From NCBI GenBank assembly GCA_963665295.1, contig OY762209.1, positions 1,888,001-1,952,000 on the forward strand: a DNA stretch of 64,000 nt, written 5' to 3'. The position numbers and the translations under genes were made by a program. This document shows, piece after piece, positions 8,870 to 17,296 of the stretch. The notes under the pieces were generated by a model that did no database searches, was not told the origin of the DNA, and was given only the letters and a program-made list of their open reading frames with translations. Source of the stretch: Syntrophorhabdaceae bacterium. Lineage in GTDB: Bacteria > Desulfobacterota > Syntrophorhabdia > Syntrophorhabdales > Syntrophorhabdaceae. Position 1 is the first letter of the stretch. Each line of letters begins with the position of its first letter.

Positions 8870-8990
8870 CCCGAACCGCCGAAGCGGAAGATCACCGCAA
8901 GAGAATGAGGCAATCGTCGCCCTTCCCGGCGGCAGGCAGGTCGGGCGTTGCGGTCCATTGCAGATATTGGTTCCCCATCGATCGCCAAAG

Positions 8991-8999
8991 TGCTATAAT
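8991..8999 (+). promoter_or_regulatory. extended -10 promoter element of protease 2
   Basis: TGCTATAAT upstream of AGGAGG RBS and ATG 9042. Confidence 0.5.
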
Positions 9000-9041
9000 C
9001 TTTTGCTCCGGAAAATAACAAAGTCAAGGAGGGAACCCCCC

Positions 9042-11030
9042 ATGCCTGCAAAGGGCTCGAAAACCGCAGCGCTCATCAGCCTCATCGTTTTTGCCCTCGT
9101 ATTTGCGTTCCTGCCCGTGGGCAGCGCTCGCGGCGACTCATCATCGCCGGTGGTGGAATGGTCCCTTGAGGCGGAACTGCTTGTCCCGGTTGACGGGGGT
9201 GTTGACCACATGAGCGCCCTCACCTCGAAACTTAATGCGAATAACGCCAGGTCGGACGCGAGGGTCATCGCTTCCGACGAAAGAGGCGTCACCTATGCCT
9301 TCAAAGCGTCGGGAAAGAGCGACGTGAATGCCCTCCGCTCCGTCCTTTATACGGCCGCCGCGCCCGGGTTCAGACTCCTCGGAGGAGTGACTGAGATGGA
9401 GGTCAGGGGGCGGGCTTTGGGTAAACAGAACACCACCATCATCCTTGAATCAAACCCCTCCACCGGATATGGCTGGAGACTCTCCCCGGGGAGCGCGGTG
9501 ACGCGGAGCGCCCCTGACAGGTACGAACACGCCCGCGGTTATGGTGCTTCTCAACGCCAGATCCTCCTCCTGACCTCGGACGCGACCGGGGAAGCGCCCA
9601 TCAAGCTCGTATATAAACGTTCTTGGGAAGACAGGGTCCCGACGCGGAGTCTGAAACTCTCCTTCCCGCTTTTGCCTGAAAAACTCGACCTCAGCAACCC
9701 CGATACGCCCGTTGCCCCGGTTGTCGCGGAAGAAGACAGGGTGCAGGAGAGCGCCTTTCCTGCCCTTTCCGTGGACCTGCCCTCCCACTTTGACTGGAGG
9801 GAGTCAGGCATTGTCCCCGCAGTCCGCGACCAGGGTTACTGCGGGAGTTGCTGGGCCTTCGGCACCGTGGGGATCATGGAGTCCGCTCTCTGGAAAAACG
9901 GCGTGGCAGACGTGGACCTGTCCGAACAGTTCCTCCTTTCGTGCAACAAGGACAAGTGGAACTGCGAGTCCGGAGGGTTTACCGCCCACAAGTACCACTA
10001 TAACACCACGGGACAGAAGCAGAAGACCGTGGGCGCGGTCCTCGAGGCCGCCAAGCCCTACACCGCAACGGACGGCACCTGCGGTACGACTGACTATAAC
10101 AAGTCCTTCAGGCTGACGGGCTGGAAATTCATTACGGGCTCGGAGAAGACCGTAGCCACGGTTGAACAGATAAAGAACGCCATTTACACCTATGGCCCGG
10201 TCACCGCAGGGGTCTGCGCGGGTAGCGGCTGGGACGATTATGCGGGCGGCGTGTTCTCCACCGACGAAACGTCCGAGTGCTGCGACCCGGGCGAGAAGGG
10301 CTGCACGAACCACCAGATTATCCTCGTGGGCTGGGACGACGAAGAACAATACTGGATACTGCGGAACAGCTGGGGTGAAGGCTGGGGGATAGACGGCTAT
10401 ATGCACATCAGGTACGATATTTCCCGCGTGGGCGAGGGGACCTCATGGGTTACCACCAAAGGCACGCTTACGCCCTCCATAGTCATCGATTCGCCGACCC
10501 TGCCGGATGGCGAGGTCAAGGTGGCCTACGTGACGGCGACCATGTCGGTGGTAAACGGCACGGGCCCCTACAAATGGGCGGCTGCCCCGGGAAGCGCGGT
10601 CCCGGCCGGTCTCAAGCTCAAGACAGGCAAGGATACGAGTATTGTTACCATTTCGGGAACACCTTCCAAGGCGGGTTCCTATAGCTTCACCGTGCGGGTG
10701 ACGGATAAGGACCAGAGGTCGGAAGACCAGGCCCTCACAGTTGTCGTCTATCCGGTACTCGCTGTCTCTCCCGACAAATTACCGAATGCCGTGGTGGGGA
10801 CAGCTTATACGCAGGCCCTCGCAGTCACGGGAGGAAGCGGCGCGGGTTACCAGTATTCAACTGTGGGGAAGACGCCTTCCTGGCTAACGGTGAGTTCTGA
10901 AGGCGTCATTGCAGGCACGCCTACCACGGCGGGAAGCTGTCAGGTCAGTGTGAGGGTAACGGACAGCCTTGGAGGATCGGTCATGAAGAGATACACTATT
11001 AAGGTTGCCAAGGCCCCTGCCGCGTTGTAG
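9042..11030 (+). CDS. secreted C1A cysteine protease paralogue with I42-like domain and two putative Ig (He_PIG-like) domains
   Basis: Same ESNPSTGYGW, DQGYCGSCWAF, NHQI and RNSWG motifs. C-terminal LPDGEVKVAY...ISGTPSKAGSYSFTVRVTD and LPNAVVGTAY...IAGTPTTAG...VRVTDS. Confidence 0.88.
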   Translation: MPAKGSKTAALISLIVFALVFAFLPVGSARGDSSSPVVEWSLEAELLVPVDGGVDHMSALTSKLNANNARSDARVIASDERGVTYAFKASGKSDVNALRSVLYTAAAPGFRLLGGVTEMEVRGRALGKQNTTIILESNPSTGYGWRLSPGSAVTRSAPDRYEHARGYGASQRQILLLTSDATGEAPIKLVYKRSWEDRVPTRSLKLSFPLLPEKLDLSNPDTPVAPVVAEEDRVQESAFPALSVDLPSHFDWRESGIVPAVRDQGYCGSCWAFGTVGIMESALWKNGVADVDLSEQFLLSCNKDKWNCESGGFTAHKYHYNTTGQKQKTVGAVLEAAKPYTATDGTCGTTDYNKSFRLTGWKFITGSEKTVATVEQIKNAIYTYGPVTAGVCAGSGWDDYAGGVFSTDETSECCDPGEKGCTNHQIILVGWDDEEQYWILRNSWGEGWGIDGYMHIRYDISRVGEGTSWVTTKGTLTPSIVIDSPTLPDGEVKVAYVTATMSVVNGTGPYKWAAAPGSAVPAGLKLKTGKDTSIVTISGTPSKAGSYSFTVRVTDKDQRSEDQALTVVVYPVLAVSPDKLPNAVVGTAYTQALAVTGGSGAGYQYSTVGKTPSWLTVSSEGVIAGTPTTAGSCQVSVRVTDSLGGSVMKRYTIKVAKAPAAL

Positions 11031-11190
11031 AACGGCCCCTTCCTTCCGGTGCGGGCCTGTCGGTCGAAAGGCGACCGGCAACCCGGGCCTTGCGCCGGCT
11101 AAAGAATTCGGAACTACGGTATGAGGCCGGGTATCCCGGGAGTAATCCGTCGCGAATTTCGGAAGCACGTGCACAATGGAGGGTGGTGTC

Positions 11191-12009
11191 CTAATTTGCC
11201 TTAAGTAAATCCTTCACACTCCAAATATGATCTGTGATTCCTGCGGCCATTGCGGGAGTAACCCTAAGAGAGCTATGTACCCTCACGAAGTTATAATGCG
11301 CGAAGTGGAGCGCTACAGCAGCCTTGAGGTTCTCAAGCTTCTTACTAAAGGCATTAGTCAGACGAGTCAACCGGCGCATTTGCATTCTCATAGTCAGGTT
11401 TTGCCGTTCAATATATGATGTGGATATTTTGGACACATCTGGCCGACCGGATACGACTATCCGATCAGCCTTAATCACGTGCGGGGGGCTATACCTTCCC
11501 GGCCCGATAGGCTCAGCCTCATAGGCTTTTACCACTTGTCCATAATCCACTTCTGCACCGAATGCTAACTCAACCGCATCCACATAAGCGGACAGTGCAT
11601 CACTACTTATCTGCACTCTGTTCTCTAGCCTCTCCGATAGGTCGCTCATAAACGCACAGGCATTTTGAATTGATCTCTTGCCTACCAAATAAGCAGGGAT
11701 GAGCTTGCTATCTGCATCAAGGGCGACCCATACCCATTGATCGCCCACTTCAAACATATTATCGTTTTTAGTAAGGTGCCGTTGTTTCTTCCCAACATAA
11801 CACCATATTTCATCTACCTGGATATTCTCACATTGTAAGTGATTCATTGTGGAATCCATAATGTCTTCGCAATTCTGACCGGTGCGAACCATGAGGCGCA
11901 TAATCGTGTCTCTATGAATACCCGTCATACGCTCGACCGACCGTATAGACGTACCCTCGACTAATGCGCCTATTGCCATTGCCCGTTTCTCTGCCGATAA
12001 AATATTCAT
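11191..12009 (-). CDS. IS1-family DDE transposase
   Basis: GGAGG RBS then MNILSAEK; HTH (EGTSIRSVERMTGIHRDT); QVDEIW, SSDA, YIERQNLTMR, NAFSKK, YNFVRVH. Stop codon lies inside the IR. Confidence 0.9.
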   Translation of the reverse strand: MNILSAEKRAMAIGALVEGTSIRSVERMTGIHRDTIMRLMVRTGQNCEDIMDSTMNHLQCENIQVDEIWCYVGKKQRHLTKNDNMFEVGDQWVWVALDADSKLIPAYLVGKRSIQNACAFMSDLSERLENRVQISSDALSAYVDAVELAFGAEVDYGQVVKAYEAEPIGPGRYSPPHVIKADRIVVSGRPDVSKISTSYIERQNLTMRMQMRRLTRLTNAFSKKLENLKAAVALHFAHYNFVRVHSSLRVTPAMAAGITDHIWSVKDLLKAN

Positions 12010-12046
12010 TGCAAAACCTCCCGTTGCCGTATACAATTAGGGATAG

Positions 12047-12116
12047 CGGAGCGCAGGGGTATTGAACCCCTAACGAACGGGTGTAAGCCCCGATCTGAGT
12101 CCCCAACTCGCGCCCC
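12047..12116 (-). ncRNA. tRNA-like cloverleaf (non-canonical; Val/TAC-like loop) in the transposase leader
   Basis: GGGGCGC/GCGCTCC acceptor stem; GAGT-TGGGG-ACTC D-like arm; CGGG-GCTTACA-CCCG anticodon-like arm; AGGGG-TTCAATA-CCCCT T-arm; ends G-CTA. Confidence 0.7.
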
Positions 12117-12195
12117 ATGACTTAGTAGGGGAACAGGTTGCTTGGTCAGCTTGTTTCCCTTTTCTTTTTGGTTGGTTATCGACTTCATGCAGACT

Positions 12196-12224
12196 ATTAT
12201 AATAAATTTATTATAATATGTCAA
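12196..12224 (-). promoter_or_regulatory. consensus sigma70 promoter for the tRNA-like RNA and transposase, overlapped by a palindromic operator
   Basis: Minus strand TTGACA (12224-12219), 17-nt spacer, TATAAT (12201-12196). Perfect 24-bp palindrome at 12195-12218. Confidence 0.8.
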
Positions 12225-12242
12225 CAATATACCACTTGAAAT

Positions 12243-12260
12243 TATAATTTTTTTATTATA
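12243..12260. promoter_or_regulatory. second operator-like palindrome upstream of the RelE-like gene
   Basis: TATAAT-N6-ATTATA, same half-sites and spacing as 12198-12215. Confidence 0.55.
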
Positions 12261-12265
12261 TAGTT

Positions 12266-12646
12266 ATGAAAGAATGGACCTTCAAGGTATTCGTTGAAAA
12301 TGGCTATTGTGACTTCGTTGAAGAGTGGGAGAAGAGACTTCCTACAAAGGCGAAAGCCAAAATGCATTGGCTAATAACGGAGATGCAAAAAATAAAAGAC
12401 TGGACACAAACGAAATATTTTCGTCCCCTCACCAATACGGAGGGAATATGCGAGTTGAGGTTCCAGGTTGGCAACGCGCAATATAGACCTCTAGGTTGTT
12501 TTGGACCTGATGATGGTTGTTTTACCTTGTTGATGGGAGCAAAAGAGGTCGGTGGGAACATTATACCAAAAACTGCTATCTGGACAGCGACAAAAAGAAA
12601 AGTCATGATCGGCAAAGACAGGAGGCATGTCGATGAGTACTATTGA
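12266..12646 (+). CDS. type II toxin, RelE/ParE (Gp49/HigB-like) family
   Basis: 126 aa; FRPLTNTEGICELRFQVGNAQYRPLGCF...LLMGAKE; lies directly upstream of and overlaps an HTH gene. Confidence 0.8.
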   Translation: MKEWTFKVFVENGYCDFVEEWEKRLPTKAKAKMHWLITEMQKIKDWTQTKYFRPLTNTEGICELRFQVGNAQYRPLGCFGPDDGCFTLLMGAKEVGGNIIPKTAIWTATKRKVMIGKDRRHVDEYY

Positions 12647-13187
12647 TAAACGCAAGAATAGACTATTGGAAGAACTGCAAGACAAAGAATACAGGGACGC
12701 TTATACTTCTGCGGCGGTTGACATTGGAATAGCATTTCAGATAAAGGCGTTAAGAGAGCAAAGACAATGGACTCAGATGGAATTTGGTAAAATAGCGAAA
12801 ATGGCACAAGCAAGAATACATGAGCTAGAAGATCCCGATAGGCCGCCAAGCCTAAGAACATTGAAGAGGTTGGCTAACGCATTTGATGTGGGGTTAATAG
12901 TCAGATTTGTTCCAATAAGCGAAATAGTTAAATATGATCTAGATTTGTCTGATTCTCACTCTATGGCCCTATCCTCTAACTCTGCGGGAGTTAATAGCTA
13001 CAAGGACGATGCTTATTTCAGGAAGCCAGAAGGACAAGATTCTCTTGAACTATTTATGCCTTCTCCCCCCAAAGGGCAATTTCTAGGAGCTGGAGGGAGC
13101 CAAATAATGGATATGGACACGTTTAAGCAGTCCAGAAGCCAAACCGGGTTATCATTGGGTGAAAATAATGAAGCTGCTATCCGTTGA
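12633..13187 (+). CDS. XRE-family HTH antitoxin/repressor with C-terminal extension
   Basis: IAFQIKALREQRQWTQMEFGKIAKMAQARIHELE...SLRTLKRLANAFDV; GGAGG RBS at 12621. Confidence 0.85.
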   Translation: MSTIDKRKNRLLEELQDKEYRDAYTSAAVDIGIAFQIKALREQRQWTQMEFGKIAKMAQARIHELEDPDRPPSLRTLKRLANAFDVGLIVRFVPISEIVKYDLDLSDSHSMALSSNSAGVNSYKDDAYFRKPEGQDSLELFMPSPPKGQFLGAGGSQIMDMDTFKQSRSQTGLSLGENNEAAIR

Positions 13188-13827
13188 TCTAGCGCAAGCA
13201 TGGTGGTATGGACAACTGAAAGATTTTAATCCAAGGGGGGCTGCATGGTTGTCCATCCTTACGCCATGGTTATCGGAGGTTTATGGTTTGCAGCCAATGC
13301 AGCCCATAGAAGAGGAAGCTAAACAGGGTGCCATCAAATTTAAGAAGGGAATATACTCTCTTGCTAAAGGAGGGTTACCGATTGAAATAAGCCAATTATC
13401 TTTTTTTCCCGCTGGAATAGGAGCGCAAACATCGCACTCTACAGAAGCCTGTGAAACATTTTTGGTCGATTTGTTTACTAGACTTGCCGTAACTTTTGGT
13501 GTTCTGGAATATAGAGAAGTTATACAACGGAAAAGGTATTTCAGCCAGGTTTGGGTTAATACCGACAAAAACATAGAATTGCTCAACCCCAAACTAAAAG
13601 CGATTACGGAGTACCTTTCTAGCGAGGTTGAGGAAGGAAAGTTAAAGTTTGAAGCAGGCGGTATATCGTTTTGGCCAGACCAAACGGCGAAGTTTCCACC
13701 ATCGGCATTTGTTTTCGAAAGGGCAGGTAATATACCATTTTCGGAAAATAGGTACTTTTCTAGGGCGCCATTGACGACGGATAAACACCTTCATTTGCTA
13801 GAGATGTTGGAGAACATCTTGGCCTGA
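13168..13827 (+). CDS. hypothetical passenger protein
   Basis: 219-aa ORF overlapping the XRE gene and coupled (TGATG) to the next gene; no motif recognised. Confidence 0.7.
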   Translation: MKLLSVDLAQAWWYGQLKDFNPRGAAWLSILTPWLSEVYGLQPMQPIEEEAKQGAIKFKKGIYSLAKGGLPIEISQLSFFPAGIGAQTSHSTEACETFLVDLFTRLAVTFGVLEYREVIQRKRYFSQVWVNTDKNIELLNPKLKAITEYLSSEVEEGKLKFEAGGISFWPDQTAKFPPSAFVFERAGNIPFSENRYFSRAPLTTDKHLHLLEMLENILA

Positions 13828-14126
13828 TGGATGCCCAACTAAAAGAAACATTAGAAAAGCTTCATAACTGTATTGCCTCCTTCATTGAAGACGTTGTTGT
13901 CGTGGAGAAGTTTGGTAATAAAACGGTGTGGAGCGGCACAGTATCGGTATATGAGATTAAAGGCCATCCCCAAGCCACCAAAGCCTATGCGTGGTCTTCG
14001 CCTATCGAAGGCAGCACAAAGAGACGGTATTATGCCGTGCTTCATATCCCGCCCGTAGATTCTCCGGAGAAGGCGGTAAGGGCGGCGATAGTTCAAGATA
14101 GTCGATCCAAAAGGTTAACATCATAA
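13827..14126 (+). CDS. hypothetical passenger protein
   Basis: 99 aa; VWSGTVSVYEIKGHP...YAWS...AVLHIPPVDSPEKAVRAAI; translationally coupled to the upstream gene. Confidence 0.75.
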   Translation: MDAQLKETLEKLHNCIASFIEDVVVVEKFGNKTVWSGTVSVYEIKGHPQATKAYAWSSPIEGSTKRRYYAVLHIPPVDSPEKAVRAAIVQDSRSKRLTS

Positions 14127-14150
14127 ACATTTACCTTAAGGGAGGTTTAA

Positions 14151-14915
14151 ATGGAACAGTTAGCTTTGATTCCTCACACGGTAGGAACCACACTTATTCA
14201 TCAAAGAGCTATGGATGGTTATGTAAACGCTACCGCCATCTGTAACGCCGCTGGCAAGAAATTCAATGATTATTCAAGGCTCAGCGTTACGAAGGCTTTT
14301 ATAGAAGAGCTTTCCGGGGCGGCGGGAATTCCCGCCGACCTGTTAATCTTCACTGTTACAGATGGTCCGATGCACGGACGTGGAACATGGGTACACCCTG
14401 ACGTGGCGATAAACCTTGGGCAATGGTGTTCCCCTAAATTTGCGGTTGCAGTTTCTCAGTGGGTTAAAGAATGGATTGCCAACCGATCAAAGCCGCAAAA
14501 CATGCCTTACCACATTCAGAGGTATCTGGCTAATAGAGGCGAGATACCTCCCACGCATTTTTCTATGTTGAATGAAATGATTTTTGCCCTAATAGCCCCG
14601 TTAGAGTCTGCGGGGTATACCATTCCCGACGACATGGTTCCTGATATATCGGCAGGAAGAATGTTCTGTAAGTGGCTAAGGGATGAGAAAGACATTGATA
14701 CAGATATGTTGCCCACTTATAGACACGTGTTTGAAGATGGTCGCACCGTCTTCCCCAAACTTTATCCCAATGAGGTCCTTGCTGACTTCAGAGATTATTT
14801 TCACACTAGATGGTTGCCAGAAAAGGCAGAGGCTTATTTTGGGGATCGAGACCCAAAAGCCTTGCCATATCTTAAGAAAGTTCTTCCGAAGGAACCCAAG
14901 AAGTTGAAGTCATGA
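14151..14915 (+). CDS. KilA-N domain DNA-binding protein
   Basis: IHQRAMDGYVNATAICNAAGKKFNDYSRL...GTWVHPDVAINLGQWCSPKFAV; GGAGG RBS. Confidence 0.88.
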   Translation: MEQLALIPHTVGTTLIHQRAMDGYVNATAICNAAGKKFNDYSRLSVTKAFIEELSGAAGIPADLLIFTVTDGPMHGRGTWVHPDVAINLGQWCSPKFAVAVSQWVKEWIANRSKPQNMPYHIQRYLANRGEIPPTHFSMLNEMIFALIAPLESAGYTIPDDMVPDISAGRMFCKWLRDEKDIDTDMLPTYRHVFEDGRTVFPKLYPNEVLADFRDYFHTRWLPEKAEAYFGDRDPKALPYLKKVLPKEPKKLKS

Positions 14916-15061
14916 AATAGCATTTTTTGTGCCACGGAAAGGAACTCTGGATTTCAAATTAGGACACCACCCAATAGAGCATCCTTTTGACATTCGCCCC
15001 CCCTTTCAGGGTATATTAATGGAGTTTTGCTGTTTTCATGATTGATTGCGTGTAACTTTAT

Positions 15062-17296
15062 ATGGCCGAATCCACGAAACCTTTTGACAATACATCTTCC
15101 CCGGGGGAAGTACTCTCCGCATGTTTTGGCTATGAGACCTTCCGCGAGCACCAGGAAGAGGCCATAACCCAGGTCATGGCGGGAAAGGACGCCTTTGTCC
15201 TCATGCCCACGGGGAGTGGGAAATCCATTTGTTACCAGATTCCCGCCATAATGCGTTCGGGGGTGGGCGTGGTGATTTCGCCCCTCATCGCCCTGATGCA
15301 GGACCAGGTGGACGCGGTGCGTCAGTCGGGGGTCCGGGCAGGTTTCCTCAATTCCACCTTGACCTACGGGGAAGCCCGCAGGGTGGAGGAGAAGATGATA
15401 GCGGGCGAGTTGGACCTGCTCTACGTAGCGCCTGAGAGGCTTGTCACGGAGGGCTTCATGAGGGTCCTGGGGGGCACGAAAATAGCGCTCTTCGCCATAG
15501 ATGAAGCCCATTGCGTTTCCCAGTGGGGGCACGATTTCAGGCCCGAATACCTGAAGCTCGGCATCCTTCCGGAACAGTTCCCCCACGTGCCGCGCATTGC
15601 GCTCACGGCCACCGCGGACGAGGTCACGAGAAAGGAGATTATCGAGAAGCTCCACCTCGAAAAGGCGAGGCAGTTCATTTCAAGTTTTGACAGGCCCAAT
15701 ATCCGCTACAGGGTCGAGGTGAAGCAGAACGAGAAGGCCCAGTTGCTGGAGTTCCTCCGCCTGGAGCATCCGGGCCATTCGGGGATCGTTTATTGCATGA
15801 CGAGAAAGAAGGTGGACGAAATCGCGGAGTTCCTTTCCGGTAAAGGTATAACCGCCCTTCCTTATCACGCGGGCCTCGACCGGGATGCGCGGTTGAAGAA
15901 CCAGAGACAATTTCTCGGCGGCGACGGCATAGTCATGGTGGCTACCATAGCCTTCGGCATGGGCATCGACAAGCCCGATGTCCGTTTTGTAGCCCACCTG
16001 AATCTGCCGAAAACCCTGGAGGGTTACTATCAGGAAACGGGCCGCGCAGGGCGTGACGGGGATGCGGCCGACGCCTGGATGATATACAGCCTTGCCGACG
16101 TTATCATCCTGAGGCAGATGCTCGAGGGCTCCCAGGGGGACGAAGAGTACAAGTTCATTCAGCGCCGCAAGATGGAGGCCATGCTGGGCTACTGCGAGAC
16201 TTCGAAGTGCCGCAGGCAGGTGCTCCTCGGTTATTTCGGTGAAGAACTTGCCCTTCCATGCGGGAACTGCGACATGTGCGAGGGGAAGATCGAGACCTGG
16301 GACGGGTCGTCCGTTGCCCGAAAGGCCCTGTCCTGTGTAAAGGAGACGGGCCAGATGTTCGGGTCCCAGTACCTGATTGATGTGCTTATGGGCAAGGAGA
16401 ACGAAAGGATCCGCCGGTTCGGTCATGACAGGACCTCCGTATTCGGAACCGGAAAGGACCTCTCCCTGGCCGAATGGAAATCCGTATTCCGGCAACTGGT
16501 CGCCCAGGGTCTCCTGAGTGTCAGCATTGAGGATAAAGGCGGTTTCAAGCTGACCCCCGCGAGCCGTCCCGTGCTGAAAGGTGAACAAGGGTTCGAGCTT
16601 CGCAAAGACCCGGTCCCCGTGAGAAGCAAGGCAAGGAAGACCGCGGGCAAGGGCGCGGCATCGGCGGGAAAGGAGCGCTCCGGGGCTGCCCCGGGGTCGT
16701 TCCGAAACGAGGTTTTTGAAAAACTGCGCGCCTTGCGGCTCAGGATAGCGAAGGAGCAGGGCGTGCCCCCTTACGTGATATTCCACGACAAGACATTATG
16801 GGAGCTCATAGAGGTGTGTCCCCGGTCCCTGGAAGAGATGAAGGACGTGTCGGGCATAGGCGGGAAGAAGATAGAACAATACGGCGATCTGTTTCTTGAG
16901 GTCATGGTGGAGTGCAGCGAAGGACTCAGGAACGGTTCGGGTCCCGCAGAGCAGGGCGCGGGCCATAGGGCAACGGGTGGTTCGTCCCGTGAGGGCCGGG
17001 AGAACGAGCCTGCCGACACCCCCGTTCCGTGTAACGCCATCTCCATCGAGGAGGCCATCATGTTTATAAAGAAGAGGCCCCTGGTAATGCGCGATGAAGA
17101 GATCGACGATGAGAGTATCCTGAAGATAAGGGAACGATACCGAAGGGCTTATGAACCATGGAGCGCGGACGAAGGGGACTTGCTGCTCAATCTCTATAAC
17201 AGAATAAAGGAGCCCAAGGCGCTGGCCATGATCTTCCAGCGCCAGCCTGACGCGATCGAGTCGCGTATCAGGCAGCTTACCGGATTAAAGAAGTGA
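15062..17296 (+). CDS. recQ: ATP-dependent DNA helicase RecQ with HRDC and extra C-terminal domain
   Basis: MPTGSGKS, DEAHCVSQWGHDFRP, TATA, QETGRAGRDG, Zn-binding Cys cluster, RQC, HRDC (VPPYVIFHDKTL). Confidence 0.96.
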   Translation: MAESTKPFDNTSSPGEVLSACFGYETFREHQEEAITQVMAGKDAFVLMPTGSGKSICYQIPAIMRSGVGVVISPLIALMQDQVDAVRQSGVRAGFLNSTLTYGEARRVEEKMIAGELDLLYVAPERLVTEGFMRVLGGTKIALFAIDEAHCVSQWGHDFRPEYLKLGILPEQFPHVPRIALTATADEVTRKEIIEKLHLEKARQFISSFDRPNIRYRVEVKQNEKAQLLEFLRLEHPGHSGIVYCMTRKKVDEIAEFLSGKGITALPYHAGLDRDARLKNQRQFLGGDGIVMVATIAFGMGIDKPDVRFVAHLNLPKTLEGYYQETGRAGRDGDAADAWMIYSLADVIILRQMLEGSQGDEEYKFIQRRKMEAMLGYCETSKCRRQVLLGYFGEELALPCGNCDMCEGKIETWDGSSVARKALSCVKETGQMFGSQYLIDVLMGKENERIRRFGHDRTSVFGTGKDLSLAEWKSVFRQLVAQGLLSVSIEDKGGFKLTPASRPVLKGEQGFELRKDPVPVRSKARKTAGKGAASAGKERSGAAPGSFRNEVFEKLRALRLRIAKEQGVPPYVIFHDKTLWELIEVCPRSLEEMKDVSGIGGKKIEQYGDLFLEVMVECSEGLRNGSGPAEQGAGHRATGGSSREGRENEPADTPVPCNAISIEEAIMFIKKRPLVMRDEEIDDESILKIRERYRRAYEPWSADEGDLLLNLYNRIKEPKALAMIFQRQPDAIESRIRQLTGLKK

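Follow-up and report, generated by a model that had tools for sequence, protein, structure and literature searches.

A conserved tRNA-like RNA of alanine type in the transposase leader of an IS1-family transposon, with predicted opposite-strand promoter and terminator signals on either side

Irregular bacterial tRNAs were described by Mukai et al. 2017 (Nucleic Acids Research 45:2776; PMC5389517) from soil and sediment bacteria, near toxin-antitoxin loci and a 'transposon-related protein'. According to the passages of that article drawn on here, some of these tRNAs have G3:U70 and some a UUA anticodon, their expression can arrest the growth of Escherichia coli, and the commonest group was suggested not to be used in translation; the corresponding part of a review (PMC7609411) agrees. 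Here, we describe a related RNA from a 64,000-nucleotide (nt) stretch of the genome of a Syntrophorhabdaceae bacterium (assembly GCA_963665295.1, contig OY762209.1, positions 1,888,001 to 1,952,000), which we call the window and in which positions are counted from its first letter. The RNA is a 70-nt cloverleaf encoded on the - strand (12047-12116) in the leader of an IS1-family transposase gene, inside a transposon with defined ends. As far as our searches show, it would be a new structural variant of the known irregular-tRNA kind, and the first to be placed in a defined transposon together with a putative antisense partner. An earlier reading of the window, made from the sequence only (hereafter, the sequence-only reading), had gone further and proposed an undescribed system, which is too strong a claim given the irregular tRNAs already reported near transposons and toxin-antitoxin loci in the portions of PMC5389517 cited above.

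The closest of the described systems are the allo-tRNAs, with which the RNA class of the window shares a non-canonical bacterial tRNA form, examples with G3:U70 and UUA, and a transposon and toxin-antitoxin setting, as far as the passages of PMC5389517 go. The two differ in architecture, however. The allo-tRNAs have a 12-bp acceptor branch arranged as 8/4 or 9/3 and a long, serine-type variable arm, whereas the class described here has a 7/5 branch and a variable region of 3-6 nt with no long arm, lacks the linker of positions 8 and 9 (8/9 linker) and carries C at position 37. Further, the allo-tRNA passages contain no fixed slot in a transposase leader, no antisense unit and no defined transposon with terminal inverted repeats (IRs) and an 8-bp target duplication, as found for the class of the window. 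Our literature search returned no description of a tRNA-like gene in the leader of an IS1-family transposase or of an antisense cassette around one, although the figures and supplements of PMC5389517 and PMC7609411 may show such loci.

Other known RNAs offer partial likenesses. The acceptor end of the class (GGGGC...GCUCCA, with G3·U70, G2-C71 and, in the relatives, A73), its canonical T arm and the CCA that 16 of its 49 members encode resemble tRNA-Ala and the tRNA-like domain of transfer-messenger RNA (tmRNA). The class departs from tRNA-Ala in its anticodon-like loop, which has UUA or CUA rather than NGC, and in its reduced D arm, and our family model (R2, described below) gives the host's own tRNA-Ala no more than 38 bits; the class departs from tmRNA in having no mRNA-like domain or pseudoknots. 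ARAGORN reported no tmRNA in the window, and the cloverleaf is one contiguous stretch of 70 nt rather than the split-end form with a tag frame and pseudoknots. For the putative antisense partner, the nearest parallel is the RNA-IN/RNA-OUT pair of the insertion sequence IS10, in which an outward promoter near the transposase start produces a short, terminator-ended RNA that is complementary to the transposase leader. The putative antisense RNA of the window would instead cover the tRNA-like element and not the ribosome-binding site (RBS) and start codon. Finally, a functional analogy only can be drawn to mascRNA of MALAT1 and to bacterial tRNA-mRNA co-transcripts, in which a tRNA-shaped element lies within a longer transcript and RNase P and RNase Z could set the ends of its neighbour; the window RNA is bacterial, transposon-borne and furnished with an aminoacylation identity set, and the Rfam mascRNA-menRNA model gave it 15.5 bits against a gathering score of 42.5. 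In the case of MALAT1, a natural antisense transcript has been reported to affect cleavage of the tRNA-like element (PMC4824109).

Read from 12116 to 12047, the window RNA is GGGGCGC / GAGU-UGGGG-ACUC / CGGG-GCUUACA-CCCG / GUU / AGGGG-UUCAAUA-CCCCU / GCGCUCC / G. Its acceptor stem (GGGGCGC/GCGCUCC) has 7 bp with the wobble G3·U70 as the third pair, and its T arm is canonical, with a 5-bp stem and a UUCAAUA loop. The remaining parts are irregular by the standard of canonical tRNAs. That is, the D-like stem (GAGU/ACUC) abuts the acceptor stem, leaving a reduced D arm without the 8/9 linker, the anticodon-like arm has the loop GCUUACA with C33 and C37 in place of the canonical U33 and purine 37, and the variable region is 3 nt (GUU). 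The RNA ends with the discriminator G (G73), next to which is CUA, and its last nucleotide lies 37 nt upstream of the transposase ATG (12009-12007). The minimum free energy (MFE) structure predicted by ViennaRNA is exactly the same cloverleaf, at -35.4 kcal/mol compared to a mean of -24.0 kcal/mol (standard deviation 3.05, z = -3.75) for 200 shuffles, only 1 of which reached an equally good fold, and the cloverleaf is retained when the complete 205-nt leader is folded. Finders of ordinary tRNAs do not recognize it: ARAGORN made no call on the window copy at its default setting or at -ps95, and at -ps90 called the site tRNA-Val(tac) with the register off by one (its sole call in the window otherwise is a tRNA-Ser at 2812-2903), while the top Rfam match of the window copy was tRNA-Sec (E = 0.28), whose 21.2 bits fall short of the gathering score of 47.

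These results bear out the geometry given by the sequence-only reading (a 70-nt cloverleaf with a 7-bp acceptor stem, a 5-bp T stem, no 8/9 linker, a G-CTA end and 37 nt to the ATG) as well as its expectation of a poor score from tRNA finders. That reading had also placed the cloverleaf between a promoter and the RBS, and well inside the IRs as part of the element rather than at an integration site; the promoter (12224-12196) and the RBS (GGGAGG at 12022-12017, read off the sequence), both on the - strand, and the IRs (11182-11198 and 14955-14971) are positioned accordingly.

To assess how the cloverleaf is conserved, we collected relatives of the transposase from 61 related genomes, genome contigs (the best 80 of 556) and metagenome contigs (the best 80 of 588), and the locus counts below refer to the best-scoring sets of 80 genome and 80 metagenome loci. 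A first covariance model, built from four seeds, was used to scan the regions upstream of the transposases. The cloverleaf was found directly upstream of the transposase, and on the same strand, in 22/80 genome loci and in 28/80 metagenome loci (30 matches in the latter). The 54 matches from genomes, metagenomes, the window and locus L008 gave 49 distinct sequences, from all of which the R2 covariance model and a 49-row alignment were made. In this alignment, 92.2% of the cells pair, compared to 77.1% in shuffles, both sides have changed in 14 of the 20 pairs (114 cells), and none of 500 shuffles attained the observed value of even one of five measures. It is important to note that the alignment was fitted to the model, which favors the structure, but the slid-register control, in which shifting the partners by 1-3 columns leaves only 46-65% of cells paired, and the visible compensatory changes are independent of the fitting. 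Among the helices, pairing is highest in the acceptor (99.7%) and T (99.2%) stems. The outer T pair covaries as well (C-G 26, A-U 9, U-A 5, G-C 2, G-U 2 and U-G 1), which rules out the 8/4 or 9/3 fold of the allo-tRNAs in favor of 7/5; an eighth acceptor pair would be G-G or G-A in three of the relatives (L022, L046 and L044). Across the family, the whole RNA measures 68-72 nt, and the median pairwise identity of the core is 71%, compared to 53% for the 60 nt upstream and 57% for the 35 nt downstream.

The strand on which the RNA would act can also be read from the alignment. In the acceptor and T stems, 58 cells are G·U, a pair that forms on the transposase strand only, versus 2 that are A·C, a combination that could pair only if the opposite strand were the transcript, and the T-loop motif, A73 and the encoded CCA likewise fit the transposase strand. 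The R2 model further shows how specific the RNA is to the element. In the 5.5-Mb genome of the host, the window copy scores 84.5 bits and the next match 35.9 bits, and in 96 genomes of the host's order there are six matches at 77-88 bits, all six of which adjoin a transposase; the remaining matches listed have ≤38 bits, and the 24 of them that were checked are all ordinary tRNAs for Lys, Trp or Ala. In a transposase tree of 152 rows, the bearers group in a single clade, in which 45 of 49 rows carry the RNA (support of 91 in the Shimodaira-Hasegawa-like approximate likelihood ratio test); one bearer (L124) lies outside this clade, and of the four clade rows that lack the RNA, one (L107) is on a contig that extends just 36 nt upstream. 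On this comparative evidence, the cloverleaf represents a genuine RNA gene that is under selection and that belongs to a family of IS1-family transposons as a fixed part, and it is best described as an element-borne, alanine-type irregular tRNA and not as a decaying captured tRNA. The tRNA mimic encoded by the element that the sequence-only reading had proposed is thus specific to the element and lies inside its IRs, and the conserved, covarying cloverleaf that it expected upstream of homologous transposases was recovered at 50 loci with compensatory changes in 14/20 pairs. The decaying tRNA fragment that it had named as the outcome that would overturn its proposal does not fit a clade with the RNA in 45/49 rows and a core more conserved than its flanks. 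What our analysis adds to that reading is the alanine identity set, the stop-codon-type register of the anticodon-like loop, and the predicted opposite-strand promoter and terminator that bracket the RNA.

The alanine character concerns the acceptor end. G1-C72, G2-C71 and G3·U70 are invariant in all 49 sequences, pairs 4 to 7 covary, and A73 is present in 48/49, the window copy being the only one with G. G3·U70, A73 and G2-C71 constitute the identity set of alanyl-tRNA synthetase (AlaRS). In addition, GG is present in the D region of every sequence, and the T loops are of the UUCRANY type. The features by which enzymes recognize tRNAs are retained in this way, with a 7/5 acceptor-T minihelix, a canonical T loop, the GG of the D region and the AlaRS set. 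The anticodon-like loop, which could be parsed in 47 sequences, has 7 nt of the fixed form N-Y-[U/C]-U-A-C-A, with UUA at positions 34-36 in 41/47 and CUA in the other 6, so that U or C at position 34 is the sole variation within the triplet. Such triplets would read stop codons. Position 37 is C in 45 of the 47 loops, and position 33 is U in 30 and C in 16, the window copy among the latter. ARAGORN at default called six of the 49 family members, four as tRNA-Stop(tta) and one each as Pyl(cta) and Leu(cag), and no Rfam match at gathering level was obtained in 20 related loci. A comparison by eye of the YUACA loop with the IR, the RBS region and the trailer gave matches of 4 nt only, none of them convincing.

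On the - strand, a sigma-70 promoter with 12/12 consensus positions (TTGACA-17-TATAAT, 12196-12224), which is conserved in two relatives (L006 and L028), precedes the cloverleaf, and no sense-strand terminator was found between this promoter and the ATG. The promoter would drive the leader, the cloverleaf and the transposase gene. Facing it on the + strand is a promoter-like site with 9/12 consensus positions (TTGCAA-17-TACAAT, 12009-12037), which overlaps the start-codon region and points into the cloverleaf, its -10 element ending 9 nt from the 3' end of the latter. This arrangement recurs among the relatives: a site with at least 8/12 positions was found on the opposite strand in 41/49 sequences, compared to 9/49 when the sense strand of these 60 nt was scored, and in one relative (L008) it is a perfect TTGACA-17-TATAAT. 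The end of the -10 element lies 5-12 nt from the cloverleaf in 34/49, with a mode of 9 nt (18 sequences); that is, the spacing of this promoter is constant to the cloverleaf and not to the ATG. At the other side, starting 11 nt past the complement of G1, an intrinsic terminator is predicted on the + strand (12127-12170), which consists of a 14-pair hairpin (12127-12160) followed by TTTTCTTTTT. A strict automatic test detected such a hairpin with a T-run in 18/49 sequences on the opposite strand versus 4/49 on the sense strand; this count errs on the low side, as an additional outer helix is frequent in the MFE fold, and further cases are visible by eye. The predicted opposite-strand RNA, of about 125 nt, folds as the complement of the cloverleaf plus the terminator. 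The predicted promoter and terminator of the opposite strand bracket the cloverleaf, implying a putative cis-antisense RNA, a feature that is new here.

Taken together, we favor, with a probability of about 0.5, the hypothesis that the cloverleaf is a processed tRNA-like leader element that would be chargeable by AlaRS and held down by an antisense RNA. Under this hypothesis, the cloverleaf would be co-transcribed with the transposase gene, either starting at the upstream promoter or as read-through of passenger genes that lie upstream, and would fold into an L-shape that RNase P cuts at its 5' end and RNase Z or RNase E at its 3' end. Such excision would split the transposase message from upstream transcripts and set a short 5' end for it, and would also free a stable RNA of about 70 nt that AlaRS could probably charge. 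The short, exactly complementary RNA of the opposite strand might then pair with the sense transcript, or its transcription collide with that of the sense strand, and in either way restrain both processing and transposase expression, in the manner of the antisense RNAs of other insertion sequences.

Several observations weigh against this hypothesis. Processing by RNase P and RNase Z, which the sequence-only reading had put forward beside a possible role as RNA partner of the transposase, would be the simplest role in cis, but cis-processing alone leaves the features with the highest conservation unexplained because these enzymes need no G3·U70, A73 or YUACA loop. The D-like and anticodon-like helices are less well paired (78% and 82%, respectively) than the acceptor and T helices, and one subgroup of the family ('group B') has an unpaired GAUUGGUU stretch in place of the D arm. 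The antisense promoter of the window has only 9/12 consensus positions, a score also met by chance in the region, and the automatic terminator test was positive in just the 18 sequences mentioned above. Finally, the window copy departs from the family at two conserved positions, carrying G73 instead of A73 and C33 instead of the more frequent U33; it may be a less typical member and could be less active than others, although its transposase and IRs are intact.

Alternatively, the RNA might be a working nonsense-suppressor tRNA(Ala) that receives CCA, is charged by AlaRS and delivered by EF-Tu, and inserts alanine at UAA and UAG for the benefit of the element. The invariant alanine identity set with its near-universal A73 and partly encoded CCA, the 7-nt loop with stop-type triplets throughout, and the five relatives that ARAGORN reads as Stop(tta) or Pyl(cta) are what this alternative would predict, and one bearer (L127) has a single in-frame TAA, at codon 107 of its transposase gene, beside an upstream RNA called tRNA-Stop(tta). 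This TAA could have arisen by simple mutation, or it could be the only instance in which read-through is of consequence. The decoding features of the RNA, on the other hand, do not favor suppression. Working tRNAs carry a purine at position 37, as opposed to the C37 of nearly all loops here, U33 is present in only 30/47 loops, and the absent 8/9 linker together with a reduced or absent D arm would be unusual for function on the ribosome. The transposase genes offer few targets, too: among about 158 genes surveyed, just four hold any in-frame stop, and only the one of L127 is a TAA or TAG in a cloverleaf bearer. Because in-frame TAA or TAG codons are not systematic, we discarded the idea of a read-through role dedicated to the transposase gene. 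Nor is the terminal stop of the transposase confined to TAG and TAA, since the 49 bearers use TAG in 31 cases, TGA in 10 and TAA in 8; the excess of TAG arises because the IR motif AAATTAGGACAC contains this triplet. We therefore consider a working suppressor rather unlikely.

Another possibility is an addiction or control module made of RNA only, in which an alanine-charged tRNA mimic with a stop-type anticodon, stable and harmful or active in translation (by mis-reading or by titrating the synthetase), would be neutralized by the short-lived complementary RNA from the bracketing cassette, so that loss of the transposon is penalized. The predicted antisense promoter and terminator enclose the cloverleaf only, and in both the window and L028 a protein toxin-antitoxin pair adjoins this intergenic slot; irregular tRNAs have arrested the growth of E. 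coli or killed it, and cluster with toxin-antitoxin loci, in the passages of PMC5389517 relied on above. An antisense RNA, however, is equally expected for plain control of the transposase, and C33 and C37 argue against efficient decoding, so that this reading appears distinctly improbable. If it were true, the module would amount to a tRNA-based toxin with an antisense antidote, and would explain why irregular tRNAs (the present class, the allo-tRNAs and tRNA(ACU)) recur in this transposon family and beside toxin-antitoxin genes.

It is also conceivable, at still longer odds, that only the opposite-strand RNA matters, as an inhibitor resembling RNA-OUT, and that the sense strand resembles a tRNA only as a relic of its ancestral DNA. 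The predicted promoter and terminator lie in positions that suit the opposite strand, and in the anticodon-like arm A·C cells (38), which correspond to G·U on that strand, are as common as G·U cells (34). However, the invariant G3·U70 would become an A·C mismatch if the other strand were read, the acceptor and T stems show the opposite preference (58 versus 2 cells, as given above), and the T-loop sequence, A73 and encoded CCA are sensible only on the transposase strand.

Very little probability attaches to the last two explanations. The sequence-only reading had suggested, among other roles, that the cloverleaf is a decoy or substrate for the neighboring RelE/HigB-like toxin or for host anticodon nucleases. 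The toxin gene of the window is indeed divergent from the same intergenic region, and the YUACA loop is conserved as if something recognized it; however, RelE-family toxins cut mRNA on the ribosome and not tRNA loops, and tblastn finds a gp49/HigB homolog in only 2/22 genome loci with the cloverleaf and its helix-turn-helix (HTH) partner in 3/22, so that the proposed link to the toxin is not supported. A decaying captured host tRNA, or a by-product of the 73-aa open reading frame (ORF) that runs through the cloverleaf on the same strand (12006-12227), can likewise be set aside: tRNA finders fail on the window copy, that copy has G73 and C33, and an ORF of 71-87 aa spans the region in 7/22 genome loci, but the RNA is kept in 45/49 rows of a deep transposase clade, with compensatory changes in 14/20 pairs. 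The coding reading of the 73-aa ORF was rejected because the core lengths of 68-72 nt differ by amounts that are not multiples of three and the frame of the ORF relative to the ATG is not conserved, differing between the window and L022.

Other irregular tRNAs precede the transposase gene in more distant members of the transposase family (53-58% identity). These are an 8/4 tRNA(UUA) with a long variable arm (L149:107-191), a long-arm tRNA(UAU) (L157:474-563 and, on the complementary strand, L099:2339-2426), a tRNA(ACU) of 73-77 nt (L077:2789-2861, L081:2728-2803, L144:209-284 and L179:530-606) and a tRNA(CGA) (L092:2820-2892); those of L081 and L092 lie inside the IRs of their elements. As far as the passages of PMC5389517 describe them, these upstream tRNAs match the allo-tRNAs and other irregular tRNAs of that study, and the transposon family may thus be the genetic vehicle of the published allo-tRNAs. 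Irregular tRNAs have been on record since 2017 with neither a role nor a genetic vehicle defined for them. The present transposon family, with its clear ends and target duplications and its members in many phyla, would supply such a vehicle, together with a tRNA-like gene held in a fixed slot before the transposase over long co-evolution, an alanine identity set combined with a stop-type loop, and a putative opposing antisense cassette. Should the RNA be charged and take part in decoding, read-through of stop codons could be spread by mobile elements; should it serve as a switch of the processing or antisense type, it would represent a new way to control a transposase. The cloverleaf family would be easily overlooked in annotation because it has no Rfam match at the gathering score and is mostly missed by ARAGORN.

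The leader also varies among relatives. Two loci have tandem tRNA-like genes ahead of the transposase (L135:513-586 and 594-666; L119:491-567 and 585-657), and the first copy in L119 has a different loop and is the one that ARAGORN calls tRNA-Leu(cag). In one subgroup (L023-L025, L029, L031, L032, L027, L038, L046, L080 and L022), the conserved leader, about 250-110 nt upstream of the ATG, opens with an RBS and a mini-ORF (ATGAGAAGAG...) of about 10 codons that ends in TGA. The hairpin that follows has the loop GAAUCGCCGC, which is complementary to the GUGGCGAUUC immediately 5' of the cloverleaf, and the two might form a pseudoknot or pair as an alternative. The cloverleaf is missing from an alphaproteobacterial sister clade (L033-L079), in which the same place, 60-170 nt upstream of the ATG, has a divergently transcribed gene and a palindrome (TGTATGCA...TGCATACA) that surrounds a TTGACA promoter, an arrangement reminiscent of a protein repressor controlling this slot. 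That sister clades use a divergent gene and an operator-like repeat at the same place fits a regulatory role for the slot.

The mobile unit itself is a 3,790-bp transposon (11182-14971), as bounded by perfect 17-bp IRs and an 8-bp target duplication, and the cloverleaf is therefore well inside it. The IR at the transposase end (GGTGGTGTCCTAATTTG, 11182-11198) overlaps the transposase stop, and pairs with the second IR (CAAATTAGGACACCACC, 14955-14971); a repeat-pair search returned an inverted pair of 18 nt, 100% complementary, at the element ends, and the consensus of the family IR is GGTAGTGTCCTAATTTG. The left copy of the target duplication (CAATGGAG, 11174-11181) is identical to the right copy (CAATAGAG, 14972-14979) at 7/8 positions in a comparison of the flanks. 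The element block has a G+C content of 41-50% versus about 60% in its flanks, and the host genome holds one copy of the element. Among the 80 genome loci, both element ends were inside the fetched DNA in 36, with element lengths of 2.1-4.8 kb, and 35 of 37 complete elements (counting the window) have perfect 8-bp target duplications, the window and L028 having 7/8 each.

The transposase is a single ORF of 272 aa on the - strand (11191-12009), from the ATG to a TAG at 11193-11191. It scores 41.6 bits with the Pfam DDE_Tnp_IS1 domain, above the cut-off of 24.1, and 70.7 bits with the NCBIfam equivalog transpos_IS1, under the cut-off of 100 of that model, and its full-length relatives share 53-82% identity with it. 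The element resembles the IS1 family in this domain, in its short terminal IRs and in target duplications of 8 bp, within the 8-9 bp of that family, but its transposase is one ORF in place of InsA/InsB with a frameshift, and the elements of the present family are, at 2.1-4.8 kb, carriers of passenger genes and an RNA gene. Two paralogs in the same genome, with transposases 47-49% identical, have no cloverleaf (L017 and L020, at G000:C1:5326379-5327188 and 5329725-5330534). Both have a TTGACA...TATAAT promoter that ends only a few bases upstream of the ATG, suggesting an mRNA with hardly any leader.

Five genes on the + strand of the element are transcribed divergently from the transposase. They encode the gp49/HigB (RelE-like) toxin homolog (12266-12646; Pfam PF05973, 1.1e-7), an HTH (Xre/HigA-like) protein of antitoxin type (12627-13187; Pfam HTH_31 and HTH_3), a 222-aa protein without a Pfam match and with homologs in three relatives (13159-13827; L028, L045 and L067), a 99-aa protein that we call p99 (13827-14126), and a KilA-N domain protein (14151-14915; Pfam PF04383, 4.1e-23). 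Across the family, the passenger genes include P63C, KilA-N, p99 and toxin-antitoxin genes. By tblastn, p99 is present in 48/80 genome loci, in 21 of the 22 with the cloverleaf and in 27 of the 58 without it, and is therefore a partner of the transposase and not of the RNA. It occurs across many phyla and has the motifs LHxC...YAWSSPIEGSTKRRYYAVLH. The p99 protein has no Pfam family and no sequence match in the PDB, and its Atlas clusters are annotated only as 'hypothetical protein'. An AlphaFold2 model of p99 (predicted local distance difference test score, pLDDT, of 85) shows a helix, four strands and a helix, for which structure searches gave no convincing match (best E = 0.13 with Foldseek; best Z = 5.2 with VIA-align, in cystatin-like topology only).

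The transposon is flanked by a gene for a 690-aa secreted papain-like cysteine protease, so named from sequence motifs only (8958-11030, + strand), and by a 233-aa ORF in the opposite orientation (14954-15655, - strand), both with about 60% G+C. In three other loci, ordinary host tRNA genes are found about 60-100 nt from the transposase-side end of the element (L023:3884-3960; L040:3835-3909, complementary strand; L130:1591-1667 and 1683-1754), hinting that some insertions land beside tRNA genes.

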